NCBI GenBank assembly: GCA_963768075.1
Contig: CAVYHD010000022.1
Location: forward strand, 45,802 to 109,801
Reading direction: 5' to 3'
Source: Terriglobia bacterium
Lineage (GTDB): Bacteria; Acidobacteriota; Terriglobia; Bryobacterales; Bryobacteraceae
Length of the DNA stretch: 64,000 nt
This document shows, piece by piece, positions 2,166 through 60,299 of the stretch (the first letter of the stretch is position 1; the number at the start of each line of letters is the position of its first letter). The position numbers and the translations under genes are program-made. Under the pieces are notes generated by a model. It did no database searches. It was not told where the DNA came from and was given only the letters and a program-made list of their open reading frames with translations.

Positions 2166-2327
2166 TATTGAGCGGGACCGGCGAGTTTCTCCTTTTTGAT
2201 CTGCCTATTCTTAGCAGCAGCTCTACATTCCCTAACTCGCGTAGTTTCACGTAGAAAGCTCCGGAAGCTGATTTCCTCGTTCGGATTTGGAATTCAGATT
2301 GCCCTTAAGGCAACCCGAGAAGGGCGT

Positions 2328-4027
2328 ATGAAACTAAAACTGAGACCGGAGCTGGTGCTTCTGATGATGGCGATGCTATCCGCGGCCGTCCAATCCGCGC
2401 AGGCGGCATCCCTCGGGAGCATCAACGCGCTTTGGGTATACAAGGCGGGTTCGCTTCCGAACGCAGTCACCGACCAGGCGACCCGGAATACACTCATCCA
2501 AAACGGCTCCGCCAGCGGCGTCAATATGCTCTATGTTGCCGTCTATGGTTCTACGCCGAACAGCGCCGGACGCTACATGTATGACGACGGCGATGTCGCG
2601 GCTTTCATCACAGCCGCGCACGGAAAGGGAATGCAGGTGTATGCCGCCCTCGGTGACGCTGACTGGCCGTCGTCCGGCTGCGCCGTCTCCGGCAACCCCT
2701 ACAAACGTTTTACGGATCTTGCCGGATACGACTCGTCTAACCCGAACGCTACTTTCGATGGCGTCATGCTCGACGTCGAACCCGGCAGCAATCCCGATTT
2801 GCCAGCCCTACTCGGGCTCTATCAATGTTTTCAGCAGATGGCCAGCGCAAACGGCCTGGGCCTTTCGGCAGCCGCCAGCGCCTTCTGGAATACGACGGTC
2901 ACGTTCAACCAGGTCACAGAAGAAGCCTACAAACAGATTGTGGATCTGGGCATGAACAACGTGGTGGTGATGGGTTACCGAAACGTCGCGGGCTCGCTCG
3001 ATTGCAGCCAGGGCGATGGAATCATTTGCCTGGATGAAAACTACATCGCTTATGCCAACAGCCTCTCCCAAAGCAAAATGATTCTGGTTGGTTTGAACAC
3101 GGATAACCCGGCGACTTCCGGCGCTCCGGCCGAGGAAACATTCTACGCCATGGGCCAGACGGCGATGAATAACGCGGCACAATCCGTTTACAGCCAATTC
3201 ACGGCCGCCAGCCAAACCTTCGGCGGCTTTGCGATCCACAATTACCGGGATTCGTACTTGAACGGGGAGTTATCAGGCTGGCCAGCTACGAACACGGTTT
3301 TGGCGGCTCCAGCGCCTCATTTTTCCCAGGCCGGCATCGAAAACGCAGCCAGTCTTCAGGGAGGGAGCATCGCGCCGGGAGAGTTGATCACTATCTTCGG
3401 GGAGAATTTAGGCCCTGGCTTGCCGCTTGGCATGCAGGTTGTCAAAGGAACGGTGGCCACAAGCCTGGGAGGCGTCCGGGTCCTGTTCAACGGGATTCCG
3501 GGACCTGTGGTATTCGCGTTTTCCAATCAGGTGAGCGCCATCGTGCCCTTCGAAATTGAAGGTCAGTCGGCCGCCGTGCAAGTCGAGTACTCGGGCGTTG
3601 TATCCGCTCCTGTAAACGTGCCGGTTGCCCAGGCGGCGCCGGGCATCTTCACAGCAGACGGCTCCGGCACAGGTCCTCTTGCTGCATGGAATCAGGATGG
3701 TTCAGTCAACAGCGTGGCCCATCCGGCCACTCCCGGCTCCGCGGTGACGCTGTTGCTGACCGGCGCGGGCCAGACCACACCCACCGGGGTCGACGGATGG
3801 GTGAGTATGGATACCGCCAGGTTAGCTTCACTCGCGCTTCCATCAGGGCGCTTATCGGCGGCGAAGCTGCAACAGTGGCATACGCGGGGAACACTGTAAG
3901 CGTTGTCTCCGGAGTCGTACAAGTGAATCTGGTCGTGCCGGGCGGCCTATCACGCGGCGCGCATCTGGTCCGGGTATACATCGGCCCGGCGGAAACTCAG
4001 GCCGCCGTCTCGATCGCGGTTCGATGA
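2328..4027 (+). pseudogene. Secreted protein: signal peptide, glycosidase-like TIM-barrel-like region, Solibacter-type C-terminal domain (TIGR03437-like); one frame break near 3810-3830
   Basis: ATG at 2328 gives 'MKLKLRPELVLLMMAMLSAAVQSAQA'. The C-terminal 'GIFTADGSGTGPLAAWNQDGSVNS...PGSAVTLLLTGAGQTTP' continues in ORF 3686-4027 as 'IGGEAATVAYAGNTVSVVSGVVQVNLVVPGGL...VSIAVR'. This is the pattern I recall for the acidobacterial C-terminal domain. Confidence 0.6.
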
Positions 4028-4230
4028 GGCCGGAGATCGCGGCTAGCGCTAATGCCGCCACCAAATTGCTTTCTTGGTCACCGCAAGTTGTGATCGCAGA
4101 GTGCAGTAGGATCAGTGGAGCCAGATGCAGGTACTTCAGAAGCTCATCGGATTCGCGCGAAAATCCCTTCGCGAACAATTGCGGGCAGTCGAGAACATTT
4201 GCAGGTACCCGAGCGACCGTCCGCTACCAT

Positions 4231-5009
4231 TTGTTGGAAAGGGGTTGGAATGTCCCTCGTCTGGGGAACGACAGAACAGCTTATATTATTGGACTGTTCG
4301 GCACCGGACGTTGGTATATCAATGAACTGATACTGCAGAACATTGGAGAAAGGGCGAAATATTTTAGGGATAGGATCCGCTTCCATCCAGGTCCGACATC
4401 TATGATCTACAGCGGCCATGCCACAATGAAGCATGTTTCTCGCGTTCAGGCATTGCCAGCGGTAACGAGCCGTATATTGGAAGCGGTCAGATCGGGATTT
4501 GCCGATTTGATTTTTGTCTATCGTCATCCCCTCGATTCGTTGCTGACAAATTGGATTTGGTGGCGGACATACATTCGCGACAACACGGGTGATTGCTGGT
4601 ATTTCGCAGGTTTATAAGAACACAGACGATCTATGTGCCGATTTGGAGCAGAATTTTCTGGAATTCAAGGCCTTTGCCGAAGGCGACCCTGATTTTTTCG
4701 CGGCCGTACCAGGCCCGCGCATTTTTGTCTTTCCCGGAATTTGTTGAGGAAACTGAGCTTTATCTCCAATCCGCCACGCTCCCGTTGCGGCTTGAGGACT
4801 TCATGATCGATCCGTTCAAGGAGTTTTCTAAGATCGTTGAAGTCATGTCGGTTGATCTTGATTTGAGCCGTTTACGTGTAGCCCCTCCGAGAACCAAGCC
4901 TTATGGCTATTTGGCGGTTAAAGAAAAAGTTCCTCGATTCAGAGACTTTATCAATGGGCTGGATGCGGAGACAAAAAGACGGATTGAGAAAATCGGCTAT
5001 ATGATGTAG
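4231..5009 (+). pseudogene. Sulfotransferase-fold protein; two frame breaks (about 4588 and 4721); start uncertain (TTG 4231)
   Basis: P-loop-like 5'-PSB 'YIIGLFGTGRWY' and 3'-PB-like 'FVYRHPLDSLLTNW'. The middle frame reads 'VIAGISQVYKNTDDLCADLEQNFLEFKAFAEGDPDFF'. The last frame reads 'RLEDFMIDPFKEFSKIVEVM...'. Confidence 0.5.
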
Positions 5010-5032
5010 GGTCTGGACTGGCCTATCCGCGC

Positions 5033-5049
5033 CGCGCCGCCCAGGCGCG
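5033..5049. terminator. Short GC hairpin between convergent genes
   Basis: CGCGCC-gccca-GGCGCG-type stem (6 bp) between the stops at 5009 (+) and 5052 (-). No U-tract. Confidence 0.25.
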
Positions 5050-5051
5050 AG

Positions 5052-5792
5052 TCAATAGGTGGTCTCGATCGCCGTCAGACCCGCGATGCGCTTCTCTGTG
5101 AAATCCAGGAACTTCCGGAAAAGTTCCGGACCTAATTGCACCTGCAGATCGTTCACCGAGCGCCACGCGCCGATATACTGCGCTGGCGTTTGTTGCAGCG
5201 AATGCCTGCCTTCGAGGTAAAGCACCTCGGCGAATTGCGGCTTGGCGCTCAACATGTCGGTCAGCCGCTCGGTGATGCCAGACCGTCCGGACGATACGCG
5301 CCGGATGTCAGGTTTAAGCCGCGTGATCTGCGTCTCGATTTCTACGAGCAGCGGGTTCGCCTCGATGAGGCGCGGATTCCACAAGGCAACGAAGACGCCG
5401 CCAGGCCGCAGGATGCGGTGGAACTCGTCGCATGCCTTGTCAAAATCGGCCCAGTGGAATGACGAGGCCATGCTGACAAGATCGGCGGAGCGGTCCGGCA
5501 ATCCAGTGGCTTCGGCCGAACCTTTGTGCCAGACAATATCCGTGCCCCGCGAGGTTTCGATGCCTTGCCCGCGCATGTCGTCATTGGGTTCCACGGCGAC
5601 AACGGAACGCAGGCCGCGGTCCGCGAGCATGCGTGTCCAAATGCCAGTGCCGGCGCCGATGTCGGCGGCATCGATACTGGCCGCATCGCGTCCCACATAG
5701 CTTAAGATCGCGGTCGCGACCTGCGGCGCATAACCTGGCCGGAACCTGGCGTAGTCGTCAGCTAACCCCGTAAAATCTCCGTGTTTCATCAT
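5052..5792 (-). CDS. Class I SAM-dependent methyltransferase
   Basis: Motif I 'AADIGAGTGIWTRMLADRG' and post-I 'VVAVEPNDDM'. Start taken at 'MMKHGDF' (ATGATG at 5787-5792) rather than the ORF-track start at 5837. Confidence 0.9.
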   Translation of the reverse strand: MMKHGDFTGLADDYARFRPGYAPQVATAILSYVGRDAASIDAADIGAGTGIWTRMLADRGLRSVVAVEPNDDMRGQGIETSRGTDIVWHKGSAEATGLPDRSADLVSMASSFHWADFDKACDEFHRILRPGGVFVALWNPRLIEANPLLVEIETQITRLKPDIRRVSSGRSGITERLTDMLSAKPQFAEVLYLEGRHSLQQTPAQYIGAWRSVNDLQVQLGPELFRKFLDFTEKRIAGLTAIETTY

Positions 5793-5877
5793 GACTGCCA
5801 GCCCGCGGCGCTCCCATCGCCTTTTCGATACATGCAAAGTTCAGTTTGATCGCACCCGTCGCGCCGATCAATCGCCA

Positions 5878-6657
5878 TCATCCTGCCTTCAGCTCGCTGC
5901 CCGACAGCGGATCCTCGAGCAGGAGTTCCCCCTCCCTTACCATGGTCCGGTAGAGCTGCACATCCTCCGGATTGTCGATTTCGCCCCATTGGCCATCGGT
6001 ACCGAAAGTGCCGATCGGGAGTTCCTTTCCGGCTAGCAGCCGGCGCAGCAATCCGGTCATATCGAGGCGATCGCGGATTGGTGCGTCGAGTGTACTCGAG
6101 TAGCGTCTCGACGCGACTCCATGCCGGTGGCGTGAATTTGAAGAGGCCCATATATTGCCCCTCGATATCTTCGATCCGCGTGGTCTTGCCGCCGATCTCC
6201 AGCAATTGGCCCGCGGCATTGATCCGGAAGGTTTCGGCGTCGGCCAACGGATCGGCGAAACGCCGGGTCCACAGGCGGCGCCAGGCGCGGTCGTAACTGA
6301 TGACCAACTGGCCGGGCGCCAGGCCAGACCGCGTACCAACTCGCTGCGGTAGAAGATGTCGGCATAGCTGACGATGACCGGCCCCGAGCGCAGCCACGGA
6401 GCGGCCGCGGCGAGCGACATCACCATATTGGTTTCGGCCCATCGTTCGTTGGCGAAATAGGAGAGGCCGGGAAAATCGATCATCTCGGCACGATACCCGC
6501 GGACGACCCCGATCTCGTCCACCCCACCACGCCGGAGCGCCGCGATCTGGCGCTCGATCAGCGGCTTGCCTTCGAGTTCGACCAAGCATTTCGGACGGTC
6601 GTCGCCGAGATGCCCCATACGGCTGCCGCGACCGGCCGCGAGGATCACGGCGCGCAT
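5878..6657 (-). pseudogene. NTP-transferase (LicC / Cj1416-like cytidylyltransferase fold); two compensating frame breaks
   Basis: N-terminal 'MRAVILAAGRGSRMGHLGDDRPKCLVELEGKPLIERQI' (G-x-G-x-R signature). The middle part is only sensible in ORF 5789-6589 ('GQLVISYDRAWRRLWTRRFADPLADAETFRINAAGQLLEIGGKTTRIEDIEGQYMGLFKFTP'). The C-terminus 'GQWGEIDNPEDVQLY' returns to the first frame. Confidence 0.75.
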
Positions 6658-9592
6658 CACGCGATGACCAAGACCTTCTGGTTCGTGCAATCGAGGCACA
6701 GCTTGCGCGCCGTCTGCCATCGCTGGAACAGGGCTTCGCCCGGCGCCGATTACGGCGGGTATGCCGAGTTCGCCGGCGCGGATCGCCATGTGCGAATTGG
6801 CGCCGCCGAACTGGGTAACGAATCCGCTGATGCCACGAGTGAAGATCCAGTCGAAGCCGGGGTCCGCGCTTGGCACGAAAAGAATCCGTCCAGCGAAGCT
6901 CTCCGGCGGGTCGCCGACTAAGGCAACCGGTGCGGTGACGCTTTTTCGCGTAATGAAATTAGGCTGGCTCGGGGGAAGGTGAAATGCGAACACTTCGTCG
7001 GGCGACGCGATGATCGGCGGAAGCACCAGATTGCGCGTGAGCGCGTGACGCTCCCTGCCATGCGCGACACTCTCCAGCAACGCCTCGCGCACCGAACCGC
7101 TCTCGCTATAGAGCGTGCGGATGGCGTCGTAGTTCAGAAATGCGCAATCCTCCGCCGAAAGACCATGATCCTCGCCCAGCTGCCTGATCAGCGACAAAGC
7201 ATCGCTCAGGCTTCGCGTGAACACGAACTTCGCGTATTCGCGGCCCTCAATGCCGGCCTTGATGAACTCGATCAAACTCAGGACGTCGATGTCGAGCTCA
7301 TGTTCCTTGAGCAGTTGCTCGATGCGGCGCAACTGCTCGATCGAGAGCGCGAAGCGCGGCGGCGCGGGCGCCGCCGGCCGGGCGCTCGACCAGTCGAAAT
7401 AGAGATCGGGCGCCTCGTCGTAGCGCGGCGACAGGATGTCGTAGGTCCCCGGCCGCAGGTGGCCGTAGCGCGCGAGGAAGTCCGCCTTCGAAAGTTGCGC
7501 GAAATCCTGCCCGATGCGCGACCCGACGGTATCGACACTCGCCATGAATGTCGCGCCCTCTTCGGCGTTGAGAACGCCCACCTCGACGAAGGACTGCAGC
7601 ATCTGAACCGCTATGAAGCCCGCCCGCGCGAGACCGGCGAACGGCAGCGTGCCGTATCGCTTGCAGTCCTCGATCAGCCAGTAAATGCGGCTGATCTTGT
7701 CGATCTCCGCGTTGCAGATTGCCGGAAACCGCTCGCGCCAGCAGGTCGATCTTCGCGCGGTCGCGCCGCCACAGCGCGGTCTCGCCATGCATGATGCGAT
7801 TGGTGAGGCGCCGTAACGCGCCCGAAAGTTCGGCCAGGTCTTCCGGCGAAAATCCGTGCTCGGCGAGCCTGCCCATCCGCTTCGGCAAATCGAGCGTGTA
7901 GCAGGAGAAGATGATCTCAAATTCGACCTTGTCATGGAGATGCGGCTCGGAGAGGAGGCGATCGATGTAGTAATTCACGAGCCGCCCGGCGAGATCGTCG
8001 GGCACGTCGCGCGGTACGAAGGAGTTGAAGCTGACACGCACGTCGATGTAGGGCAGCCCGTGAAAGCTGACCAGCAGCGGAAAACTGCGCAGATTCTGGT
8101 ACCCGTAATTGTCCCGCTGATAGGCCCAGATCGCGTCGGTGATGAGTTCGCGATAGAGCGACAACGAGAGGGGCCAGGGCCGCACCCCGATGATTTCTGC
8201 CGGGTTCCAGTCCGGCATGACGCCGAATATCGCCCGGCTGCCGTGCAGGTAGGGATGCGGGCGGCTGAGCAGCTCGACCTTGCGCGCGATATCGGCGAGC
8301 GCGGCATCGACCTTCGCGTCCGCTGCCCGCACCTGGCGGTCGACGGCGAGCGGGCGGACTTGCAGAAGGTAGAGCTGCCCGTCGCCGCCGACGGCGAATT
8401 CCACGTCGATCGCATCACACGCCAGAAGGGTTTCGAGCTCGCTGACCAGAGCGATGACCGGCGCCAGCGACGGTGGGCAGGCATCCGGCCGCGATTTGAG
8501 GCAAAAAAAGTCTCGAGATTGTCGCCGGCGCCGGCGGTCACGCGATCGGTTAGGCCGGAACGGTCGTCGTAATTGATGATGAAATAGGGGCCGCCGCTCG
8601 GACTGCGCGAGAAGGCCACGCCGGCCATCGCCACGCGGTCAAGCATGGGCTGCACGAAGATCTGGTCGTCGTCGCTTCCGTCATCGGCGAACGAGTCAAT
8701 CACCCGGTCGATTGCCTGCGCCACCGCTGCGCTGCCGACAACACCGAGTACGGAATCGTACCTCCCGGCCTGGGAGTTCACGGCGCCGTCCTCGCCCCGC
8801 GCACTGCTACGCACGATGACCCGATCCGAACCCCAGGGCGCAGCGGCGACGGCGGCGAGCACCCGAGCGGCGTCCGAGCGCCAATCGCCAACCGAGAATC
8901 GGACCTGTGGCAGGACGCGCCCGTTGCGCAGCAGCGGCGCCAGCGCTTCCAGAGATTCCGCCTTCGTTTTGAAGGCGACGACGCGCGCCGGCTGCGCCGC
9001 GCCTGCGCCATCGCGCCTGGCGCATACCGCCAAGATGCGGTCGACCGCCGTGGCAACGTCGAGCGCCCCATAATTGTCGAGAACCAGGTCCGGCGCCTCG
9101 GGGGCCTCCGCCGGCACGTCAAGGCCAACGACGTTGCGCGCATCGCCGCGCTGAGCCCCCGCGTAGATGCCCTTGCTATCCCGGCGCCGTAGCTCGTCTA
9201 TCGGGACCCGAAGGTAGATCTCGCGATAACCGGGGATGTTCTCGCGGTTCCAACGCTGCACCTCGTGAAACAGCGAGATGGTCGCGCAGACGACATCGGC
9301 GCCCTGCTCGGCCAGCAACCGGCACAGCCGCGCATTGCGCATCGCCGATCGCCGCCGATCGCCTGCGCTGTGGCCAAGATCTTCGGCGATCGCGGAACGG
9401 AGCGCGTCGCCATCGAGGAAGGTGACCGGACGGCCGGCGGCACGCAGCCGGCTCGCACAATTCCCGCCCCAAGGTGGTCTTGCCGGCGCCGGATAACCCG
9501 GTAATCCAGAAGACGCGCCCCGGTGAAGCCTCCTCTTCAGCTTCAGTCTCGCGTTCCGCCTTTCTTATGTTTGTCAGCATATGAAGTTGCAT
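6657..9592 (-). pseudogene. Fusion protein: APS-kinase-like P-loop kinase + PPDK_N (PEP/pyruvate-binding ATP-grasp) + PEP-utiliser phosphohistidine swivel domain; about 4 frame breaks
   Basis: 'VFWITGLSGAGKTTLGREL' followed by 'CATISLFHEVQRWNRENIPGYREIYLRVPIDELRRRDSKGIY' indicates the APS-kinase fold. 'IVRSSARGEDGAVNSQAGRYDSVLGV' is PPDK_N. '[35 protein letters not shown]' is the swivel His domain. Frame breaks lie near 9445, 8505 (A7 run at 8503-8509), 7735 and 6745. After repair, the stop TGA overlaps the next ATG (TGATG at 6655-6659). Possible starts are 9616 (GTG), 9592 or 9580. Confidence 0.75.
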
Positions 9593-9646
9593 CGTGCCTG
9601 TAACAAACAGGCTCACCCGTTAGTAACATTTCCGTAACGAATTGGT

Positions 9647-9675
9647 AATATATATGAAACCATTCTGCCAGTAAA
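9647..9675 (-). promoter_or_regulatory. Possible sigma70-like promoter for the minus-strand operon (TTTACT-17 nt-TATATT)
   Basis: Read on the reverse strand: -35 at 9670-9675 and -10 at 9647-9652 with a 17-nt spacer, about 30-55 nt upstream of the candidate starts. The acidobacterial promoter consensus is poorly known. Confidence 0.25.
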
Positions 9676-42561: not shown

Positions 42562-42866
42562 TTGAACAGTTTACCCGAAAAATCCAGGTCGACCTCAAGC
42601 GCAGGTTAAGACGTAACTCATTGTGCAAGTGTCATTTGATGCTTGAATCTATGCGAAACGGGAGACGTCGCTCCCAAGAATTGGATCGCCAGGATTCTAG
42701 TGGAAAGCGATTAGCTTATGTTTCAATCGTTTGAAACTGGACAGTGTCCGTTTTCGGACGTGGCACAACGCGTGCTGATGCCAGGCCTGACCAAAACCGC
42801 TGACCGGAGTTGGGTGGTCCGGCCCCGCGGGAAGGCGGATATTTCCAGGTGCAAGGAGCTAAACGA

Positions 42867-45800
42867 ATGAAAAGCCTCCGGTACAGCGCATGTTTGCTGT
42901 TCCTGATTTTCACTGCCGTCGGCCTGTATGGACAGGAGAGCGGCTCGATCACCGGTACCGTCAGAGACAATACGGGCGCTGTGGTTCCTGGGGCTGAAGT
43001 CAACATTACGAGCCAGGCCCAAGGGGGGATCCAAAAGGTCACCACCAACTCGAATGGCGACTTCCTGGTGGCGGGACTTTCAGCGGGGACCTACGACATC
43101 ACGATCACCGCCAACGGCTTCAAGAAGTACGCGGCTACAGGGTGTGGTGCTGCGCGTCGGGCAGAAGGCGCGTGCCGACGCTACGCTGCAAGTCGGCGAG
43201 ATCACGACGGAGGTGACCATAGCGGGGGAAGCCGTGGCCGTAGGTGGAAACGCAATCCGCGGAGATATCGGGAATTGTCACCGGCAAGGAGATCAGCCAG
43301 ATCGTCCTGAACGGCCGCAATTTCTCGCAGCTTGTGACCCTGACGCCGGGCGTGAGCAATCAGACCGGTGAGGATGAAGGCACGGTCGGCATCATGGGCA
43401 ACGTCGCGATGAGCATCAACGGCGGCCGCACCGAATACAACAACTGGGAGATGGATGGCGGCGACAACATGGATAACGGCAGCAACAACGGGCTGAACGT
43501 CTATCCCAACGTGGATGCCATCGCCGAAGTCAAGGTGCTGACCTCGAACTACGGCGCGCAGTACGGCCGCAACGCGTCGGGCACGATTGAGACGGTAACC
43601 AAGTCCGGCACCAAGGGGTTCCACGGCGATCTGTTTGAGTTCGTCCGCAATGACGACTTTAACGCGCGAAATTTCTTCCAGGCGACGGTTCCCGAGTACA
43701 GGAAGAACGACTTCGGCTTACACCCTTGGGGGGCCGCTTTATATTCCCGGCTTTTACAACACGAAGAAAGAAAAAACATTCTTCTTCTGGTCCGAGGACT
43801 GGCGCCGGGAGATTATCCCCGGGCAAACCTTCGATCTTCAGGTTCCCTCGGCTGCCGAGCGGGCCGGAAACTTCTCTGATGTCTGCCCTGGGGCGGGTTC
43901 TATGGTAAACAAGACCGGATTCCCGGATTGCCCGGTGAATCCGAAGACCGGCTCCTATTTCCCGAACAACACGGTTCCCGTCGATCCTAACGCCGCGGCG
44001 CTGCTGACGCTGATGCCGGCGGCCAACGCGCCCAATAGCTACTACGATGCGGCTCCGGCCCAGCCCACGCATTGGCGCGAAGAGTTGGTTCGTATTGATC
44101 ACAATTTCAGCGACAACTTCCGGATTTTCGGTCACTTCATCCACGATTCCTGGAACACCGTTACGCCCGACTCCGCTTTGGGGCAACGGCGCGTCTTTCC
44201 CGACCATACAAACGGCGTTCAACGGCCCTGGCGTCAGGCCGTGTTGCCATGGCGGCCAACATTTCGCCCACGCTGTTGAATGAGTTCACTTTCAGCTACA
44301 CCACCGATCACATTTTCCTGAATGCGCTCGGCCCCGCACAGCGGCCGTCGACAATGACCATGACCGGCCTGTACAACAACGGTTTCGGCGGTCTGTTGCC
44401 GGCGGTCAGCGTAAGCGGCGGGATCAACTACGATACCGGCGGATTCCAACTCGACACCGGATACTTCCCCTGGAACAACGCCAACCCCACCTACACGTAC
44501 AAGGACCAGATCACCAAGATCATCGGCGGTCACAATCTTATATTTCGGCGCTTACCTGGTTCTGGCGGAGAAGAACGAGCAGAACAGCCCCTATGTTCAG
44601 GGCATCCTGAACTTCGACAACACGTCGCCGGTAACCACCGGCAATGCGTTTGCCGACATGCTGAATGGCGACATCCAGTCTTACACGCAGACCAATCTGA
44701 AAACGAAGTACTACAACCGCTACAAGATTGTCGAGCCTTACTTCCAGGACGACTGGCACATCACCAAGCGGCTCACGCTGAATCTGGGCGTGCGCTTGAG
44801 TCTGTTCGGAACCTACCGCGAGATACAACATCAAGCGTATAACTTCGATCCGGCAGCGTACCAACTTTCCGCCGCGCCACAGATCGATGCCACGGGCTCG
44901 GTAACGGGCCAAGCGGGCGCCATTATTCCCAACTCCGGCAATCCGTATACGGGACTGGTGCAATGCGGCGTCAACGGCGTGCCCGCGGGCTGCGCGAAAG
45001 GCCATTTGTTCAACCCGGCTCCACGCCTGGGCTTTGCTTTCGATCCGTTCGGGGACGGTAAATCCTCCATTCGCGGTGGCTACGGCGTATTTTTCGAGCA
45101 CACCAACGGCAACGAAGGCAACACCGAATCGCTCGAAGGGAGCCCTCCGCTGGTGCTCACGGGAACGCAGTACGATATCGTCGGCTATACCAAAATCGGC
45201 GGAGGTGGCGTGCAATTTCCGCTGAACGTCAATGCCATTCCGACGGTAGCTCGCTGGCCCTACGTGCAGCAGTGGAACCTGAGCGTGCAGCGTGAGTTGG
45301 CCAAGGGCACGATTCTCACCGTGGCGTACGTGGGCAGCAAGGGCACGCACCTTTCGCTCCAGACCGACATCAACCAGCTATACCCGATTTCGGCGGCGCA
45401 GAATCCATATCCAGCCGGGCAGGCTATGACGCAGGCGGACTGCAACAACGGTACTGTCAATGGCGTGGCTCCGACCGGGGCGGCTGCTATACAGTTTGGC
45501 ACCGCGTGTGGCAATAGCCCCGCCCCCTTCGTCCCGTACCGCGGCTACGGCACCATCACCGGGCTGTTTCCGCAAGCCAACTCGAACTACAACTCGATGC
45601 AGGTGTCCGTACACCGGCACATCGGCGCCCTGAGCTTCGATCTGGCGTACACGTGGAGCCACTCGCTCGATGACTCCTCTGACCGTTATGATGGCGGCTT
45701 CGTCAATTCCTACAACTGGGCGCAAACGTACGCCAGCTCGAATTTCGACCAGCGCCAGATTCTGAATATCGGCTACGTCTACGACCTTCCGTTCTTCACC

Positions 45801-46337
45801 GAGGCGGGTCTAAGCCACAAGCTGCTGGGTGGGTGGCAGGTTTCCGGGCTCACCACCTTCCAGTCCGGCGAACCTTTCAGTGTCAGCGACGGCCTCTTCA
45901 ACTCCGGTGTGGGCAACGGGACGGGCACTGGATCGTTTCTAGATCAGATTGGGAACCCCAATTCCGTCACGCAGCAAAATGTTGCGGGTGTTGTCGGCCC
46001 ACTGCTGTTCAATCCGTCCGCCTTTGCTGCGCCACAAGGGCTGACTTTCGGCACCGCGCAGCGCAATGCTTTGAACATCCCTCATCGAACGCAATTTGAC
46101 CTGGGCCTGTTCAAGTATTTCCAGGTCCGGGAGAGCAAGAGCTTTGAATTCCGTGCCGAGGGTTTCAACATCTTCAATCACACGCAGTTCAACGGCGTTA
46201 ACGGCGGCACGAGCTGCTTCGCTGGATCGGACTTCTCCGCCGGGGACGCGAGCTGCCTCGCCAACAACAACTTCCTGCGCCCGAGCGGGGCGCACAACCC
46301 GCGCATCCTGCAATTGGGCGCGAAGTTCATTTTCTAA
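42867..46337 (+). pseudogene. TonB-dependent receptor (CarboxypepD_reg + plug + barrel); about 6 frame breaks in the first half
   Basis: AAGGAG RBS followed by 'MKSLRYSACLLFLIFTAVGLYGQESGSITGTVRDNTGAVVPGAEV'. Breaks lie near 43140, 43245, 43718, 44165, 44232 and 44540. The gene reads cleanly from about 44540 to the C-terminal 'LQLGAKFIF'. Confidence 0.85.
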
Positions 46338-49229: not shown

Positions 49230-52200
49230 TTAGAAATGAAACTTGACCGCGGCCTGAATCAACCGTGGCGCAGCCGCACTCACTACACTACCGAAATTCG
49301 GGTCGTTGATTTCGCCGTCAACCGCGGATGGGCCGTAGAACTGGGCGTGGTTGAACACATTGAATGCTTCGACGCGAATATCCAACGATTTCGATTCCGT
49401 GATTGGCACCGTTTTGCTGATCTGCATGTCGAAGTTCTCGATACCCGGGCCATAGAAGAAGCGGCGCGCCGCGTTCCCTAACTGTCCGAGCGTCTCCGGC
49501 GCAAACAGACTGGTATTGAATTCAGGCCGGCCGTTGCGCGGATTGGTATTGATTTCGAGCGGTCCCGACATCATCTGCGGCGTGTCGAGCAGTTCATTGT
49601 TGACGCCGTTGCCAAGTGTTCCCAGCAGAGACCGGTCAGAATCGTCGGCAAGCGTCACCGGGAATCCCGTACTGAACCGGGTTGTTCCAGAAAGGCTCCA
49701 GCCCTCCGTCAAGCCGGTTGCGACGGAATAACTGATCGAATGGTAAGGCATAGGTATAGGTCGCCACGAAGTTCTGCGTCATGTCCCACGAGGAAATTAC
49801 GCGGGTGAGGCGCGCATTGAACGGATTGGTTTGCTCGCCCAGATTCGACGCCTCATCGATCGATTTCGAATACGTATAACCGACCAAAACCGTGGTTCGG
49901 TTGCTGGTGGCTAATCGCAGATTGACTTCGAGAGCGTTGTAATCCGAATTGCCGACGGACTTTTGCGCCGTCGTCGATCCGAAGCTAGGACCTAGCCCAA
50001 CCCGAGTTCCCTGGTACATTCTTCCCGATGCGGATGTGTAGGCGGCATCTTCGCCGAAGGGGCCGCAGGTGGAGCTTCCCGGCGCTACTTCGCTCGGCTG
50101 GCTGAGGCTGAGACACAAGCGCCGGATTGCCCAAGTTCGCCGGAACCAGGACCAGGAGATGATGGCCCTCATTGCCCGCATAGCTAACCGTCAACAGAGC
50201 GCTTTTGCGTAATTGTCGCTGAATTGAAAACATGTAGTTTTCGGTATAAGGCACACTGTTCCGGTAGTAGAAGTAAGGGTCTGCGCTGATCGGAGTGACG
50301 GCAGCGAAATCGAACCCCGTGTACGGATTTTTTGCAGAGACATTATGCGGCGGGAAGTTCAACGGGAATGGATCGGTATTCTCGGCGCCATTAGCCGAGT
50401 TGATATACGGCGTAGCAAACAGCGGCGGTTCCGGACTCAGATAGTTGTATCCGTAGGGAGGCACGCCATACATGATCCCTGCCGTTAATCCAGGAAATGC
50501 CGTGTAGAAAATGCCATAGCTTGCGCGAATGCTGCTCTTTCCCGGCTCGCCAACGAGAGTCTTTAGAAATCCATTGTCGAAGTTGGGAGAGTATGCGACG
50601 CCGACTCTGGGAGCGAAGTTGTGTAACTGCGAAGGCGACAACGTTGGCGGAATGCCGGGATCGCCCGGCACAACCAATCCATTCATTGCGTTGGGATAAA
50701 GCACCGATTGCTCGCCCGGAACCATGGTCTGGATCTGATTGTACTTTTCCCACCATGGCATGATGAGGTCCCAGCGCACGCCGAGGTTCAGGGTAAGATT
50801 GCTTCTCGCCCGCCAGCTATCTTCCGCGAAAGCTGCGCCGTATCGATTCCGCAAATAGAAGTGTGCGCCCGAGGTCTGCGTAAAGTTACTCGGAAACCCC
50901 AGTAGAAAATCAGCGAAGGCTGAGCCTGTTTCGGTTCCGTCGATATTGAACGTTCCATTGAACGTGGCATTCGGATCTTCATTGACTTGATCGTAGTGAA
51001 ACTGGCCGCCGAATTTGAGCGTATGGGCGCCGACAACCTTCGATACCGTGTTACTCAGATAAATCGTGTTGTTCCACTGATCTACGTTTGTGATCGGAAC
51101 CCCCATGACGAAAGACGGAAATACAATGTTCTCGACACCCTCAAACTGCGGCGCCTGGACGATTATGCCCGGTGTGCCGACGCCCGTCACGAAGCCTTGC
51201 GACTGAAGGGTTACTCCCAGACCGCCGTGCGGCTGGCCGATATTGTTCACATTTCGAAGTAAGCCGATGTGAAACTCGTTCACGGTCGTAGCGCCAAGGA
51301 CCTTGGTGTCGCCGATGGTAAGCATCTGCGCCTGGCCGATGGTTAAGGCATCGAATCCGGGTATGCTCGCTCCGCCCTGGCCGCCGGGATACGGATTATC
51401 CAGCCGGTAATTGTCGACGAAATAGTAACCAAAAAGCTGACCGAAACGTGTATTCGCATCGAGACGGACGCCGCCCTTGTCATCCCGCACAGTCTCCGGG
51501 TACGCGGAGGTGGCGAACAGATTCGTCCCTATGTTGGGCTGCGGGATATATTTCAGAAGATTCACTGCCGGCGACGACCACGCCCTGGTTGGGATCACGG
51601 CGTTTGGAAATACGCAGTTCGATGTGCTGGAACAGCCGGGCGCGTAGTAGGGCTCGCCTTGGGAAACGCCGTAGCCCGAGCTCTTGCGTGAGCAGCTTGG
51701 CCGTATAGGTCCCGCTCACAGTTCCCGTCAACGTACTCGCCATATCGCTCAGGTTTCCGGCACGATCCTGCAGGGAGGGCACGGACGTTTCTGGCGAATT
51801 GATGCCCTCCACCGTGCGCGTTCCCTGATAGTCGACAAAGAAAAAGAGCTTGTTCTTTATAATCGGACCGCCGACCACGCCGCCAAATTGATTCTGCCGG
51901 AAGGCGCCTCGTGTACTGTCGAAGAAATTTCGGGCGTCCAAGTCTGTATTTCGCAGAAACTCGAATGCATCGCCATGAAACGCGTTGCTGCCGGACTTCG
52001 TCACCACGTTAATCATCCCGCCGTTATAATTTCCGTATTCGGGATCGAAGTTGTTCGTCAGAACGCGGAACTGCTGGATCGAGTCCAGGTTCGGGATGAT
52101 CGATGTTCCCCCATTCATGTGCTCCTGCACGTCGATGGAATTCATCATGAATCCGTTCGACGATTCCCGTTGGCCATCGATCGAGACATCGCCCGGATTC

Positions 52201-52789
52201 AGATCGCCGGATGGGTTGATCGTTCCCGTCACGCCCGCCATGATCACCGAGGTTGGCGTCAGTGTCGTCACCGGGGTTACACCGGGTTGAATCGCGAGGA
52301 GGTCCGTGTAGCTGCGCCCGTTCAGCGGTAATGCCTCGATCTGCCGGTCGGATACAACCTCGCCGAGATGCGTCGCCACCGTGTCGACCTGCGTCTGCAT
52401 TGCCTCTTCGGATTCGTTAACCGTGACCGCCTCAGATCGTTGACCTACCTGCATTACGGTGTCAATGCGGAGAGCAGCATCAGTATCGACGGTGAGATTC
52501 GTTTTTTGCTGCTTCTGGAATTCGGTTGCCTCAATCGTCAAATCGTAATGGCCAACGGGAAGCGCTGGGAAGGAATAGAAGCCCTGCGCGTCGGAGGTCA
52601 CTTTAAACGTCGGTCTTAAGGGTAGTGTTGATCAGCGTGAGTTTGGCGCCAGGAATCGCGGCGCCGCTCGGATCCTTGACCACGCCCGGAGAGGCTCCCT
52701 GCGGCGAATGCCCAGACCCAGGCGGCCGGAACGACAACAAGTGCCGTGAGCTTCGTCAATCGTCTCGTTTTACGAAATCTTTCCCTCAT
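49230..52789 (-). pseudogene. TonB-dependent receptor (CarboxypepD_reg type); about 5 frame breaks
   Basis: The ATG at 52789 gives 'MRERFRKTRRLTKLTALVVVPAAWVWA'. Next come 'VKDPSGAAIPGAKLTLINT', 'TSDAQGFYSFPALPVGHYDLTIEATEF', the plug 'LPLNGRSYTDLLAIQPGV', and the C-terminal 'IQAAVKFHF'. Breaks lie near 52685, 52608, 51680, 50120 and 49725. Confidence 0.85.
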
Positions 52790-57166: not shown

Positions 57167-57444
57167 GCCGTCAAAAAGAGGCACGGTGCTTCGCGCCGAC
57201 TGAAGGGGTGACACGCCACCCCAGAATGGGTTGCTCAGTCTCACGGGAATCGAAACCGTTGCGCGGTGTCTGAACGCATCCGATCTTCTCGTATCTATTT
57301 GATTCTATTTACAGGGGCACCGATCCATTTGGCCATAATCGCTACGGGAATTCTCCGCGTGCGAGCAATGTGTGAGCAAAGCCCGAACGGGTTCGTCAAA
57401 TGGTCTGGCTGCCATCCTGGACGGGATCAATCGAAGATGGACGT

Positions 57445-59025
57445 ATGATAATCACGCAGGAGATCTTCGAAGCATTTCTGCACTGTCCGACCAAGTCGTA
57501 CTTGTCCTCCCACTCCGGCGCTGGGGCCGCCACCGCGCTGGTCCGAGCGCGGCAGCAGTGGGAAGAACTCTTTCGGCACACTGGTTCTTCCACCGTGAGT
57601 ACCCGTGTCCCTGACAATCAGGTGTACGTGGGGACACCTATCGCAGAGGCCATCCGACAGCAGCAGTACCGCGTGATACTCGACTGCACGCTCCAGGCAT
57701 CGGACTTGCGCGCGCACACCCACGGTTTGGAACTCGTCCGATCGCCCGGGGCCAAAGGCCGGAGCGCCTACGCACCGTTCCGCTTCGTGTCGACGGAAAG
57801 GATCTCGACGGCTGACAAACTCCTGCTGGCGTTCGATGCTTTTGTGTTTTCGCAGACCTACGGCACCACGCGGCCGCGCCTCGGTAAAGTTATTCACGGC
57901 CGGGACTACTCGGCAACCACGGTGCCGCTAGCGCCGCTCTATGCCAAAGTTCAATCCGTCGTCACTGCTATTGCTTCTCAACATATCAGCGCCACGCCAC
58001 CGCCACTCGTGCTGAACAAGCATTGCGCCGAGTGCCAATATGCAGCCCGATGTCGAGAATTCGCGATAAAGGCGGACGATCTGAGCCTTCTCGCCAAGAT
58101 GAGCGAGAAGGACCGCCAAAAGTATCACGAGAAAGGCATTTTCACGGTCACCCAACTGTCGTTCACGTTCCGACCGCGGCGGCGCATTGGCGACCACAGA
58201 AAGCATGAGCACGCCTTGCAAGCCCTGGCCGTTCGAAAAAATCAGGTTCATGTCATCGGCCCACTCATATATGCTACGGCGGGCACCGCAGTCTATATCG
58301 ACGTCGAAGGCGATCCCGATCGTGATTTCTATTACTGCATCGGTCTTCGGTTTGAAGCCGACGGAGTGATTGTTCAGCGCTCGTACTGGGCCGATAGCCC
58401 CTCGGACGAAGTAATGATGTGGGCCGATTGCCTATCTGCGCTGGGCACGATCGATGACCCACGCCTGGTGCACTACGGAAGCTACGAGACTACGTTCCTT
58501 CGCCAAATGAGAAAGCGATACCCCAATGCCGAACGGGCCGCTCTGCTCGACCAGCTCATCGCGTCGGCCGTCAACCTGCTCTCAACGATCTACTCTCACG
58601 TGTACTTTCCCACGTATTCCAATGGCCTTAAAGACGTGGCGGGCCATCTCGGCTTTCGCTGGTCAGATGCCACGCCGTCGGGCCTGGTCGCTCTTGCTCG
58701 GCGTCGAGAGTGGGAATGCACGCGGGCGCCCGAGCTCAAACACATGCTAGTGACGTACAACGCGGAGGATTGTGCCGCTGCCCAAACAGTTGCCGAAACG
58801 CTCGCCGCACTCTCGCGATCCTCACCTACGTGTAACGGCAATATTGTGGACGTGATTAAGCTGAAGCGCGAATATCCCCAGCGGTTCGGGAAAATCGATT
58901 TCGCGCTCCCAGAGTTTCAACAGATTAATGATGCGGCTTACTGGGACCACCAGCGCGAGAAAGTGTACGTGCGTTCCAGCAAGCGCCTAGAAAAAACAGC
59001 GCGGAAGCTTCTGGAGAGAGTCTAA
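57445..59025 (+). CDS. RecB/Cas4-like nuclease + RNase-H-fold 3'-5' exonuclease (TM0106-family layout)
   Basis: The Cas4-type Cys pattern has an N-terminal 'FLHCP' plus 'KHCAECQYAARC' (C-x2-C-x5-C). The exonuclease motifs are 'AVYIDVEGDP' (ExoI), 'HYGSYETTFL' and 'TYNAEDC' (Y-x3-D). I could not pick out the PD-(D/E)xK catalytic residues confidently by eye. Confidence 0.8.
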   Translation: MIITQEIFEAFLHCPTKSYLSSHSGAGAATALVRARQQWEELFRHTGSSTVSTRVPDNQVYVGTPIAEAIRQQQYRVILDCTLQASDLRAHTHGLELVRSPGAKGRSAYAPFRFVSTERISTADKLLLAFDAFVFSQTYGTTRPRLGKVIHGRDYSATTVPLAPLYAKVQSVVTAIASQHISATPPPLVLNKHCAECQYAARCREFAIKADDLSLLAKMSEKDRQKYHEKGIFTVTQLSFTFRPRRRIGDHRKHEHALQALAVRKNQVHVIGPLIYATAGTAVYIDVEGDPDRDFYYCIGLRFEADGVIVQRSYWADSPSDEVMMWADCLSALGTIDDPRLVHYGSYETTFLRQMRKRYPNAERAALLDQLIASAVNLLSTIYSHVYFPTYSNGLKDVAGHLGFRWSDATPSGLVALARRREWECTRAPELKHMLVTYNAEDCAAAQTVAETLAALSRSSPTCNGNIVDVIKLKREYPQRFGKIDFALPEFQQINDAAYWDHQREKVYVRSSKRLEKTARKLLERV

Positions 59026-60217: not shown

Positions 60218-60286
60218 TCGGCGCTGGAAGTGATCCTGCCCGGATTTGCGCGCCGCGCCACGCATTCTGCCGAAAAACAAGGCGTT

Positions 60287-60299
60287 TGATGTAACATCA
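60287..60299. promoter_or_regulatory. Palindrome TGATGT-a-ACATCA 22 nt upstream of the AbiEi start (candidate operator)
   Basis: Read directly. AbiEi proteins are known to autoregulate through inverted repeats in their promoter, but this one is short. Confidence 0.25.

Follow-up and report, generated by a model that had tools for sequence, protein, structure and literature searches.

A compact acidobacterial gene cassette homologous to the Campylobacter jejuni MeOPN pathway, with a predicted PAPS-like phosphoramidate donor

Gene content of the locus

The window considered here is a stretch of 64,000 nucleotides (64 kb) from a soil acidobacterium with a GC content of about 59%. Pfam matches to the raw open reading frame (ORF) pieces at the locus (APS_kinase, PPDK_N, PEP-utilizers, NTP_transf_3 and Methyltransf_11) outline the gene set, which after repair of the reading frames comprises the following features.

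9592-4125: cassette of four genes
9647..9675, minus strand: promoter-like site TTTACT-17-TATATT 5′ of the fusion gene, with a score at chance level
6657..9592, minus strand: fusion gene, about 977 aa once its four 1-nt indels are corrected; start ATG 9592 or ATG 9580, stop TGA 6659-6657
9010..9525, minus strand: Cj1415-like (APS-kinase-fold) P-loop kinase domain
9514-9473, minus strand: VFWITGLSGAGKTT, containing the Walker A motif GLSGAGKTT
6807-6751, minus strand: phosphohistidine swivel motif
6790..6792, minus strand: predicted catalytic histidine codon, aligning with His737 of C. jejuni Cj1418
6655..6659, minus strand: TGATG stop/start overlap, the final A of the repaired fusion TGA (6659-6657) being also the first base of the NTP-transferase ATG
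5878..6657, minus strand: Cj1416-like nucleotidyltransferase of 260 aa, with two 1-nt indels (6319, 6097) corrected
5052..5792, minus strand: SAM-dependent methyltransferase, Cj1420 orthologue, with a 1-nt deletion at 5054
4125..5009, plus strand: convergent orphan gene, encoding about 288 aa once three 1-nt indels are corrected, with a predicted divergent sulfotransferase-like fold; candidate group transferase

The MRAVILAAGRGSRMG of the NTP-transferase begins at 6657 on the minus strand. An earlier note, made from the DNA letters, had described the three-domain fusion with its motifs, the TGATG junction, the NTP-transferase and the methyltransferase, and all of these are present by Pfam matches, coordinates and repaired frames. 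It also described a convergent gene of sulfotransferase fold starting at 4231; the fold is recovered in the predicted structure, to which Pfam and NCBIfam are blind, and the true start lies at 4125.

Frame breaks and gene integrity

Frame breaks were placed by DNA alignment against intact relatives that are 93-96% identical. Those in the fusion gene (9455, 8505, 7733 and 6741) and in the NTP-transferase gene (6319 and 6097), each a single-base indel, lie very close to the positions that the earlier note had estimated. The convergent gene has three breaks, at about 4208, 4584 and 4720, and the deletion in the methyltransferase gene produces a stop about 10 codons early, so that the claim that every gene but the methyltransferase is broken holds for the other genes and fails for the methyltransferase itself.

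Nine frameshifts and one truncating indel within 5.5 kb, together with the loss of one pathway gene, could be taken to mean that the roughly ten breaks are real and the cluster is a decaying set of pseudogenes, which we consider very improbable. Every break is of 1 nt, and after correction no in-frame stops are left in the cassette genes. Unrelated window genes carry breaks that match these in kind and density, two TonB-receptor genes being split likewise, and sister nanopore-style assemblies are also broken (for example, Carbam_trans is split in L003). The dN/dS values of the cassette genes are 0.12-0.24 against L001 and L003, and 0.10-0.14 for all four genes against the hydrolase-less L178, an Illumina contig that shares the architecture and has intact ORFs. 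Because unrelated window genes are broken too and dN/dS lies at 0.10-0.24, the breaks are sequencing or assembly errors, found assembly-wide as single-base indels, and not the decay that the earlier note had allowed for; the cassette genes, judged by the selection acting on them, are functional.

The kinase-kinase fusion

O-methyl-phosphoramidate (MeOPN) is a rare phosphorus-nitrogen decoration of sugars. In its donor pathway in C. jejuni, described by the Raushel and Holden groups, Cj1418 is an L-glutamine kinase, Cj1416 a CTP:phosphoglutamine cytidylyltransferase, Cj1417 a gamma-glutamyl-CDP-amidate hydrolase and Cj1415 a CDP-amidate 3′-kinase (PMC11800397). By homology, the fusion protein consists of an N-terminal Cj1415-like 3′-kinase domain and a full-length Cj1418-like L-glutamine kinase, the latter composed of an ATP-grasp and a phosphohistidine swivel domain. 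Intact homologues of the fusion are 967-1018 aa long and 88-96% identical to it; one of these, P0002 (94% identical), was used for scoring against curated models, and C. jejuni strain GP013 supplied the reference proteins for the identity figures.

Residues 205-976 of the fusion are 40.4% identical to Cj1418 over 784 aa in a direct comparison; at about 40% identity substrate specificity is no certainty. On NF004508 (cut-off 501), P0002 reaches 942.8 bits and Cj1418 itself 1173, and no PEP-synthase or rifampicin-phosphotransferase model rises above 63 bits or attains its cut-off. These scores support placing the PPDK-like part with the glutamine kinases and not in the PEP-synthase or rifampicin-phosphotransferase grouping that the earlier note had named as the outcome speaking against its reading. 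Taylor, Chamberlain and Raushel reportedly identified His737 of Cj1418 as the catalytic histidine in 2018, and the 10-residue motif around the predicted catalytic histidine here is identical to that at His737.

Residues 27-173 are 41.3% identical to Cj1415 (E 3.5e-35). A plain sulfation role, in which this domain is an APS kinase making PAPS for the convergent protein and the PPDK-like part is unrelated, draws on the APS_kinase label given by Pfam, on APS kinases being the best PDB matches of the domain, on the name ‘adenylyl-sulfate kinase’ that NCBI gives to homologues and on the sulfotransferase fold of the partner. P0002 nevertheless passes NF004041, the best-matching model of Cj1415, with 170.8 bits (cut-off 127; Cj1415 reaches 290.6), and reaches the cut-off of neither TIGR00455 nor any other APS-kinase model tried. 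The domain carries the Cj1415-type motifs LDGDxLR and TIS(L/M)F...WNR, whereas true APS kinases have LDGDNxR and FISP, and in a tree of 40 cassette-linked kinases and 3 true APS kinases it groups with the former, apart from the latter, in 191 of 200 bootstraps. Sulfate adenylyltransferase (CysD/CysN) is found neither in the window nor in related loci, and the domain forms one polypeptide with a glutamine-kinase orthologue, encoded in an operon together with Cj1416- and Cj1420-like genes. Plain sulfation is accordingly a very doubtful reading, and the evidence supports a domain of the Cj1415 branch and not an orthodox CysC, as the earlier note had anticipated.

The cytidylyltransferase, the methyltransferase and the missing hydrolase

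Over 252 residues the NTP-transferase and Cj1416 share 36.5% identity (E 6e-55). The methyltransferase is 38.6% identical to Cj1420 (E 2e-62) and 34.6% to Cj1419, and is on these figures assigned as the Cj1420 orthologue. The homologues of Cj1418, Cj1416, Cj1415 and Cj1420 are thus full length, at 36-41% identity, and the kinase parts pass NCBIfam cut-offs, in agreement with the proposal that the locus encodes Cj1415 and Cj1418 as one polypeptide plus Cj1416-like and methyltransferase functions.

As the earlier note had stated, a Cj1417-like amidohydrolase is absent from the window (tblastn of the whole 64 kb), and the canonical route is therefore incomplete as encoded here. Almost all relatives carry a 597-bp Cj1417-like hydrolase gene exactly at the TGATG point, flanked by two ATGA overlaps, with NF045546 (gamma-glutamyl-CDP-amidate hydrolase) as its best model. 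The hydrolase-less layout, which recurs in an independent 324-kb contig, is under purifying selection: the gene is absent from the window, L178 and L149, with purifying selection maintained on the other genes. Loss of the Cj1417 step is genuine and selected in this lineage, and goes beyond a gap in the window.

This loss under continued selection raises a different product: 3′-phosphorylated CDP-L-glutamine could be formed and a phospho-glutamine group transferred, or the kinase could have drifted to another amide or amine, and specificity may well vary in a family as large and diverse as this one (1868 clusters at E<1e-30). The window enzymes are, however, 85-96% identical to those of hydrolase-carrying relatives, Class-I amidotransferase-like hydrolases are common enough that one could act in trans, and a phospho-glutamine glycan has no positive evidence; we consider a different product unlikely.

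The sulfotransferase-fold partner

The predicted structure of the convergent protein has a pLDDT of 90.4, and PAPS sulfotransferases make up all of the best 50 PDB matches in a structure search with this model (best E 4.5e-6, probability 1.0), with TM-scores against solved sulfotransferases of only 0.36-0.41. The protein falls below every sulfotransferase threshold of Pfam; its best PDB profile matches, Teg12 and Teg14, are not significant (E 0.2-0.4), aligning weakly at the RxPxDxxxS and YEDL regions. Its homologues number more than 1000, all of them unnamed and lacking Pfam domains, and the family shares invariant strand-loop-helix GxxGTGR and strand-RHPxD-helix elements. In our own reading of sequence and model, these elements appear to occupy the places of the motifs that bind 5′-phosphosulfate and 3′-phosphate.

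About 27 related loci, in differing genomic contexts, have this gene linked to the cassette, and between the window and L178 gene and cassette co-evolve under purifying selection. CysQ-like Inositol_P genes adjoin the cassette in L003, L126, L131, L132, L137 and L206, an assignment that lies below the curated cut-off (125-127 against 228.8 bits) and nearly ties with HisN; the window itself contains no CysQ-like gene. In Sulfuricurvum, a Flavobacteriaceae MAG and a Nomurabacteria MAG, genuine Pfam sulfotransferase genes adjoin Cj1418/Cj1415-type cassettes; a Coxiellaceae MAG shows this weakly. Given the fold, the cassette linkage, the CysQ-like neighbours and the sulfotransferase genes beside cassettes in these four unrelated taxa, the protein is the strongest candidate for a transferase acting on a PAPS-like 3′-phospho-CDP-amidate donor, and the same idea in the earlier note gains circumstantial support.

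The donor pathway could also stand with the neighbour being an ordinary PAPS sulfotransferase or an unrelated enzyme and the true transferase lying elsewhere, which seems to us improbable, if the least so of the alternatives weighed here. The convergent protein has no detectable homology to Cj1421/1422 (blastp; hhalign probability 0.1), one family member comes from a polysaccharide (EPS) cluster that lacks the cassette within 8 kb, and the gene is missing in several close cassette relatives with 8-kb flanks (for example, L125, L150, L167 and L176). Against this stand the tight and repeated linkage and the shared selection described above, the absence of PAPS-synthesis genes nearby, the lack of any other transferase candidate in the cassette, and the recurrence of sulfotransferase-family genes beside the cassettes of unrelated taxa.

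Proposed pathway

The locus is probably a compact cassette that makes, and likely also uses, a PAPS-like phosphoramidate donor by a route homologous to the C. jejuni MeOPN pathway. The Cj1418-like part of the fusion would form phosphoglutamine, which the Cj1416-like enzyme would join with CTP to give CDP-L-glutamine. In a third step glutamate would be removed to yield CDP-amidate, either by a Cj1417-like enzyme from an unlinked gene or with the step being bypassed. The N-terminal domain of the fusion would then phosphorylate the 3′-OH of the cytidine nucleotide, producing 3′-phospho-CDP-amidate, an analogue of PAPS; the Cj1420-like methyltransferase would add an O-methyl group at some stage of the route. 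Finally, the sulfotransferase-fold protein may move the (methyl)phosphoramidate group onto a hydroxyl on a glycan of the cell envelope, releasing cytidine 3′,5′-bisphosphate. Homology to Campylobacter enzymes underlies the first, second, fourth and fifth steps, whose chemistry is predicted from it; the third and sixth steps and the acceptor are our suggestions. Genes for polysaccharide synthesis, which could point to an acceptor, do not adjoin the cassette in the window, and we know of no P-N glycan in Acidobacteria.

Relationship to known systems

Besides the four homologues, the locus shares with the C. jejuni MeOPN genes the same curated NCBIfam models, the same catalytic-His motif and a co-operonic arrangement. 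It differs in having Cj1415 and Cj1418 as a single polypeptide, no Cj1417 in this lineage, one methyltransferase (of the Cj1420 type) where C. jejuni has two, no Cj1421/1422-type transferase and no flanking capsule locus in the window. Relatives of the cassette carry the fusion, the Cj1417-like hydrolase, the NTP-transferase and the methyltransferase together and occur in polysaccharide clusters; the closest relative has it embedded in an exopolysaccharide cluster that also encodes Wzy, Wza and glycosyltransferases.

The genetically defined Cj1421 and Cj1422 transferases (NF058596, DUF2972) have the same presumed role as the partner, transfer of a phosphoramidate from a nucleotide donor to a sugar, and in our own reading the two families have in common a strand-GxxG(T/H)G loop and a strand-R(D/H)P-helix motif separated by about 70-75 residues. 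The Campylobacter proteins are, in contrast, about 600 aa long with a DUF2972 C-terminus. Transferases of this type occur in 12 of 120 diverse loci, only in Campylobacter/Helicobacter-type genomes, and their profile matches heparan-sulfate 3-O-sulfotransferase non-significantly (E about 2).

With the PAPS sulfotransferases (SULT1/2, plant SOT, Teg12/14 and heparan-sulfate 3-OST) the partner shares its predicted fold and the positions of the nucleotide-binding motifs; unlike theirs, its gene lies beside a CDP-amidate-type pathway and not beside PAPS synthesis. The parallel with PAPS synthesis and recycling (CysC, CysQ) would comprise a 3′-phosphorylated nucleotide-activated group, a sulfotransferase-fold user, a bisphosphate nucleotide by-product and the CysQ-like genes of several relatives, whereas the kinase here is of the Cj1415 branch and ATP sulfurylase is lacking.

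For the Borg elements of Methanoperedens, a structure-based prediction has placed Cj1418/1417/1416-like genes outside Campylobacter (bioRxiv 10.1101/2024.11.05.622173), and our genome scan likewise matched Methanoperedens and Methanosarcinales contigs. Hosts and gene architecture differ, and the passages of that report consulted here mention neither a fused pair of kinases nor a partner with a sulfotransferase fold. The occurrence of phosphoramidate-type genes outside Campylobacter, put forward in the earlier note, is upheld but more ordinary than it suggested, Cj1418-like cassettes being found in many phyla; their spread is not recognised in the searchable literature. What the present locus appears to add is a variant of a known pathway in which two kinases are fused, the hydrolase is missing and a sulfotransferase-shaped candidate takes the transferase role, with its chemistry predicted. 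Annotation pipelines already label such fusions ‘glutamine kinase’.

Gene organization and frame breaks

The gene set described in the earlier note is present in the window: a three-domain fusion gene, a stop codon that overlaps the start of a nucleotidyltransferase gene (TGATG), a methyltransferase gene and a convergent gene. The latter does converge on the cluster, with its start at 4125 rather than at 4231. A fusion protein of 977 amino acids is obtained by stitching three minus-strand reading frames (9592-6657), and the NTP-transferase gene, whose start codon overlaps the stop of the fusion, lies in one operon with the glutamine kinase.

Features of the cassette, single-base indels located by DNA alignment, and split genes elsewhere in the window
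9514-9473, minus: N-terminal P-loop kinase motif VFWITGLSGAGKTT of the fusion gene
Within the fusion gene, minus: PPDK_N ATP-grasp domain (Pfam)
6807-6751, minus: PEP-utilizers swivel-domain motif (Pfam) of the fusion gene, 19 residues
6659-6657, minus: TGA stop of the fusion, one base in common with the ATG of the NTP_transf_3 gene
6657-5878, minus: NTP_transf_3 gene, 260 amino acids
5792-5052, minus: class-I SAM methyltransferase gene, after the NTP-transferase gene
4125-5009, plus: convergent gene, about 288 amino acids, converging on the methyltransferase gene
9455, 8505, 7733 and 6741, minus: indels in the fusion gene
6319 and 6097, minus: indels in the NTP-transferase gene
4720 and 4584, plus: indels in the convergent gene
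42810-46337, plus: TonB-dependent-receptor-type gene (CarboxypepD_reg, Plug and OMP_b-brl_4) in five ORF pieces
49230-52601, minus: TonB-dependent-receptor-type gene (CarboxypepD_reg, Plug and OMP_b-brl_4) in four ORF pieces

The positions of the breaks were taken from alignment to intact relatives on other contigs that are 93-96% identical at the DNA level, and each break is a single-base insertion or deletion. The methyltransferase gene, previously held to be free of breaks, carries a one-nucleotide deletion at 5054 that takes away its last 10 or so codons. The density of breaks across the window was judged from the two split TonB-receptor genes, in both of which the pieces follow one another along a single Pfam model; the assembly thus has roughly one indel that shifts the frame in every kb throughout, and every gene call in the window needs frame repair. 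Splitting of the same kind is found in sister assemblies ('contig_N' records, ENA). Once the indels are taken out, zero in-frame stops are left, and dN/dS is 0.12-0.24 between the window and two related loci on other contigs (L003 and L001). The earlier note had considered that the breaks might be real; since all of them are of one nucleotide, unrelated genes are split too, no stops remain after repair and dN/dS is low, sequence comparison leads to the conclusion that the breaks in the cassette are in all probability assembly errors and the genes functional. A 567-amino-acid ORF at 2196-4027 (plus strand), with a signal-peptide-like N-terminus and no match in a Pfam scan, apparently continues in another frame (3686-4027), probably through another one-nucleotide indel.

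Identity of the two kinases

O-methyl-phosphoramidate (MeOPN) is a serum-resistance factor and phage receptor, and its donor pathway in Campylobacter jejuni consists of Cj1418, Cj1416, Cj1417 (the hydrolase) and Cj1415. The reference locus (L022, strain GP013) was obtained by scanning for the conserved DWNPAE motif with a DNA pattern of biased codon choice; the best 120 proteins of a search seeded with an AT-rich family member came from other taxa, with Campylobacter not among them. The order of genes in L022 is the C-terminus of a Cj1421/22-type transferase, followed by Cj1420, Cj1419, Cj1418, Cj1417, Cj1416 and Cj1415. The comparison with these proteins that had been proposed earlier established homology throughout, at 36.5-41.3% identity to Cj1415, Cj1416, Cj1418 and Cj1420.

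BLASTP comparisons of proteins from the window or its relatives with C. jejuni
Fusion 205-976 and Cj1418 4-779: 40.4% identity over 784 amino acids, 634 bits
Fusion 27-173 and Cj1415: 41.3% identity, E 3.5e-35
NTP-transferase and Cj1416: 36.5% identity over 252/260 amino acids, E 6e-55
Methyltransferase and Cj1420: 38.6% identity, E 2e-62
Methyltransferase and Cj1419: 34.6% identity, E 7e-40

Family models were applied to P0002, an intact fusion homologue that is 94% identical to the window protein. It scores 942.8 bits on NF004508 (L-glutamine kinase, EC 2.7.3.13; cut-off 501, Cj1418 itself 1173) and at most 63 bits on models of PEP synthase and rifampicin phosphotransferase, so that the PPDK-like part is of the glutamine-kinase type rather than of either of these. 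A 10-residue motif of the swivel domain is identical to that of Cj1418, and its histidine aligns with residue 737, which we take to be the catalytic His737; Taylor and colleagues are said to have reported in 2018 that His737 of Cj1418 is catalytic.

An orthodox CysC serving plain sulfation was the alternative for the N-terminal domain. P0002 passes the Cj1415-type model NF004041 (170.8 bits, cut-off 127; Cj1415 290.6) and stays under the cut-offs, here in parentheses, of all true APS-kinase models: TIGR00455 109.7 (138.7), NF002059 117.4 (244) and NF003013 95.8 (163) bits. Where true APS kinases show LDGDNxR and FISP, the window kinase domain, like Cj1415 and a further 34 kinases linked to cassettes, has LDGDxLR and TIS(L/M)F...WNR. 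A neighbour-joining tree splits the cassette kinases from a small outgroup of true APS kinases (n=3) in 191/200 bootstraps, and homologues of CysD or CysN are absent from the window and the related loci. The domain is thus not an orthodox CysC, and on each of the three points that the earlier note had named as decisive (the type of the PPDK-like part, the nature of the kinase domain and the origin of the frame breaks) the findings favour its interpretation. No solved structure of Cj1415, Cj1416 or Cj1418 came up when the fusion protein and the NTP-transferase were used as queries in sequence searches.

That Cj1415 and Cj1418 are fused here is evidence of the Rosetta-stone kind for a link between the two kinase steps, and as such it supports the known pathway. 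Among 8000 candidates scored, 2393 homologous proteins were found at E<=1e-5, and the best 120 of these are all intact fusions (967-1018 amino acids) from Acidobacteriota MAGs (Terriglobales, Sulfotelmatobacter, Korobacteraceae, Bryobacteraceae) and soil or peat metagenomes; many fusion homologues already carry the label 'glutamine kinase' at JGI. A second type of Rosetta-stone fusion is seen in P0323, in which an N-terminal NTP_transf_3 (Cj1416-like) domain is joined to the glutamine kinase. About 40 further representatives of 1000-1050 amino acids were recovered by the HMMER search, and a Pfam scan of other long forms (P0320, P0352 and P0349) gave no N-terminal domain. The fusion may have arisen more than once, because the APS-kinase-like fusions are not monophyletic in a small tree. 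An apparent methyltransferase-kinase-kinase triple fusion in L187-L202 was rejected: it came from the joining of tblastn pieces, and these loci have the genes apart.

Nucleotidyltransferase and methyltransferase

For the Cj1416-type family there is no curated model, and the nearest solved structure is LicC. The window methyltransferase (Methyltransf_11/25 domains) is nearer to Cj1420 than to the paralogue Cj1419. Whereas Campylobacter has both, the window has the Cj1420 type, as do L001 and L003; among other relatives the Cj1419 type is found on the opposite strand in L002 (14472-15242, minus), L128, L131 and L132. Judged by sequence, four enzymes or domains thus have orthology-level similarity to the MeOPN donor pathway, with the two kinases fused, and they would be expected to carry out its chemistry. 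The locus is a variant of the known pathway, with fused kinases, no hydrolase gene and another candidate for the transferase.

Loss of the hydrolase gene

L001, L002, L003, L206 and nearly all of the 80 metagenome loci whose flanks are long enough share a uniform layout: the fusion is followed by an ATGA overlap, a 200-amino-acid Peptidase_C26/GATase gene, a second ATGA overlap and the NTP-transferase gene, which starts 602 nt downstream. The hydrolase of these relatives is 27.7% identical to Cj1417 and has NF045546 (gamma-glutamyl-CDP-amidate hydrolase) as its best NCBIfam model, with a score of 115 bits that does not reach the cut-off (250). With Cj1417 and the hydrolases of L001, L002 and L003 as tblastn queries there is no match in the 64-kb window, which bears out the earlier statement that no Cj1417-like gene lies there. 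Alignment of the window with L003 skips from 12994 to 13591 of L003 at the TGATG junction, and what is missing is exactly the hydrolase gene.

The same junction of fusion and NTP-transferase is found in L178, a 324-kb JGI metagenome contig whose ORFs are intact and whose DNA is 85% identical to that of the window, and L149 likewise has no hydrolase gene, with a 157-nt spacer instead; because both lack the gene and the ORFs of L178 are intact, its absence is not due to faulty assembly. In the comparison of the window with L178, the fusion and the NTP-transferase, methyltransferase and convergent genes all give dS of 0.5-0.9 and dN/dS of 0.10-0.14, which argues that the hydrolase-less cassette is kept by selection. 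The loss of the hydrolase gene in the window lineage is a selected one, and it poses a biochemical question: either another enzyme, acting in trans, removes the glutamate, or the glutamate stays and the product differs.

The linked sulfotransferase-fold protein

The family of the convergent gene has more than 1000 members, all annotated as 'hypothetical', and neither the protein nor the family has a Pfam match even at E<=10 (Sulfotransfer_1/3 included) or an NCBIfam match. A structure model from 26 sequences was too weak (pLDDT 68.8), and one from a 120-sequence alignment was used instead (pLDDT 90.4, pTM 0.85). Foldseek against the PDB returned 58 matches at E<=1e-3, with PAPS-dependent sulfotransferases making up the whole of the top 50 (best E 4.5e-6, probability 1.0), but the TM-scores to solved sulfotransferases are only 0.36-0.41, and the protein is accordingly modelled as a divergent member of the sulfotransferase fold. 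A profile search of PDB sequences placed Teg12/Teg14 first at a non-significant E of 0.2-0.4, aligned at RxPxDxxxS-like and YEDL-like segments. Invariant residues G53, G56, G58 and R59 follow strand 48-53 in a strand-loop-helix element (GLFGTGR), and R130, H131, P132 and D134 follow strand 123-129 (strand-RHPLD-helix); these elements can be read as putative 5′-phosphosulfate (PSB) and 3′-phosphate (3′-PB) sites, an equivalence proposed from reading the sequence and the model.

Homologues of the genetically defined Campylobacter transferases Cj1421/Cj1422 (NF058596/DUF2972) are absent from the window and the acidobacterial loci, and among the 120 diverse matches listed they occur only in Campylobacter/Helicobacter-type genomes (12 loci). 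Homology of the convergent protein to Cj1421/1422 was rejected, as blastp, hhalign and profile comparison (probability 0.1) were all negative; the likeness is at the motif level only. By its modelled fold and linkage, the convergent protein appears to stand in the place of the Campylobacter transferase. With the profile of the Campylobacter/Helicobacter transferases, the only enzyme-like PDB matches were heparan-sulfate 3-O-sulfotransferases (E about 2), and these transferases may also be sulfotransferase-like. The MeOPN transferase of L022 (93-1235) and its homologues in L057, L075, L116, L056, L032, L078 and L021 have an invariant LVRDPI motif about 70 residues away from a strand-GxSG(H/T)G loop.

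In surroundings that differ between loci, a sulfotransferase-fold gene lies beside the cassette in the window itself, in L001, L003 and L206, in L002 (as two tandem copies) and in some 20 metagenome loci; in one O-antigen/EPS cluster a member of the family occurs with no cassette. Inositol_P genes, with CysQ as the best model at scores below its cut-off, accompany the cassette in six relatives, and such neighbours would fit a need to dispose of a 3′,5′-bisphosphate nucleotide. Regular expressions for the canonical PSB and 3′-PB motifs gave nothing usable in cassette neighbours, which were then screened with looser expressions and Pfam scans. Four of the 86 neighbour ORFs from 37 unrelated cassette loci have Pfam sulfotransferase domains and two have Inositol_P; the sulfotransferase domains were confirmed by direct scans in Sulfuricurvum and in one MAG each of Flavobacteriaceae and Nomurabacteria, and more weakly in one of Coxiellaceae.

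Other arrangements were noted among these loci. In L178 (12469-15261, minus) the sulfotransferase-fold domain forms the C-terminal 270 or so residues of a 930-amino-acid ORF whose N-terminal 650 residues have a Walker-A P-loop and only sub-threshold DUF6079/NACHT/AAA_16 matches; this may represent a gene chimera, a true fusion or a join made in assembly. On a 1.66-Mb contig (L204), a 121-amino-acid APS_kinase fragment (7616-7981) and several short ORFs precede a sulfotransferase-fold member, and the fragment may stem from a kinase gene that is degraded or frameshifted, and not from a full cassette. Formyl_trans_N matched 10 of the 86 neighbour ORFs by Pfam count. Fifteen related neighbour ORFs lie beside cassettes in marine and other taxa (L015, L018, L020, L059, L062, L066, L072, L073, L099, L102, L113), and in two of them the Formyl_trans_N match was confirmed.

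The compound 3′-phospho-CDP-amidate is likened to PAPS (partly after PMC11800397). It may be tentatively proposed, with somewhat more doubt than conviction, that proteins of the sulfotransferase fold form a second class of phosphoramidate transferases, so far unrecognised, that use 3′-phospho-CDP-amidate exactly as sulfotransferases use PAPS. In that case P-N (MeOPN-like) decorations of glycans, at present regarded as a speciality of Campylobacter, would be produced by soil Acidobacteria, which are abundant, and by many other lineages (SAR11, Prochlorococcus, Helicobacter, Nitrosopumilus and CPR bacteria), and the chemistry of the hydrolase-less clade may differ further. No in-vitro reconstitution of the final transfer, even for Campylobacter, was found in the open literature searched, and a small, soluble candidate protein, predicted to have the sulfotransferase fold and linked to donor genes, offers a directly testable hypothesis for this step.

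Distribution and genomic surroundings

In reviews the kinase has been called 'C. jejuni-specific' (PMC9561416, 2022) and the modification is said to be known only from Campylobacter (PMC6429109, 2019); the single exception in the literature searched is a structure-based prediction for Borg elements (10.1101/2024.11.05.622173). No paper tying MeOPN to Acidobacteria, or Cj1421 to sulfotransferases, was found in the literature searched. Donor-pathway genes do occur outside Campylobacter, as the earlier note had suggested, and they are present in a dominant soil phylum and many other taxa; this implies that the envelopes of environmental bacteria have a class of P-N-containing glycans that has been overlooked. 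An exhaustive HMMER search gave 1868 clusters at 50% identity (E<1e-30); most are unfused at about 780 amino acids, few have the APS-kinase-like fusion, and many forms are of about 1020 amino acids. A genome scan with the DWNPAE codon-biased pattern gave at least 120 matches, and the taxa among the matches listed include Campylobacter, Helicobacter, Pelagibacteraceae, Prochlorococcus, SAR86, Nitrosopumilus, Methanoperedens, Vibrio, Shewanella, Aeromonas, Clostridium, Lachnospiraceae, CPR bacteria and others. Among the 120 matches listed (loci of 8 kb), Cj1417-like genes are found in 90, Cj1416-like in 82, Cj1415-like in 40 and methyltransferases in 36.

The flanks of the cassette in the window hold genes for cytochrome c, PQQ-dehydrogenase-like proteins, TonB receptors and other typical acidobacterial products, and give no clue to the acceptor; in the closest relative the cassette lies inside an exopolysaccharide cluster. 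Across the surroundings compared (L001 9477-9875 and 20348-21073, L003 1-9240, L206 1-7407 and the window flanks), the four or five cassette genes and the sulfotransferase-fold gene are set among transposase genes, an EPS cluster, a PKS/NRPS gene or respiratory and TonB genes. The 4-6 kb stretch with the sulfotransferase-fold gene has a GC content of 0.555 versus 0.63 in the kinase region, and this lower value together with the differing surroundings suggests that the module moves between sites. At the edge of the window, a 700-amino-acid ORF (61888-63990, plus) encodes, ahead of a ResIII/DEAD helicase, an archaeo-eukaryotic primase domain of the TOTE conflict-system type (PF22548, E 1.2e-80) and is a candidate defence-system gene; the ORFs before it (57400-61816) include an RNase_H_2-superfamily protein.
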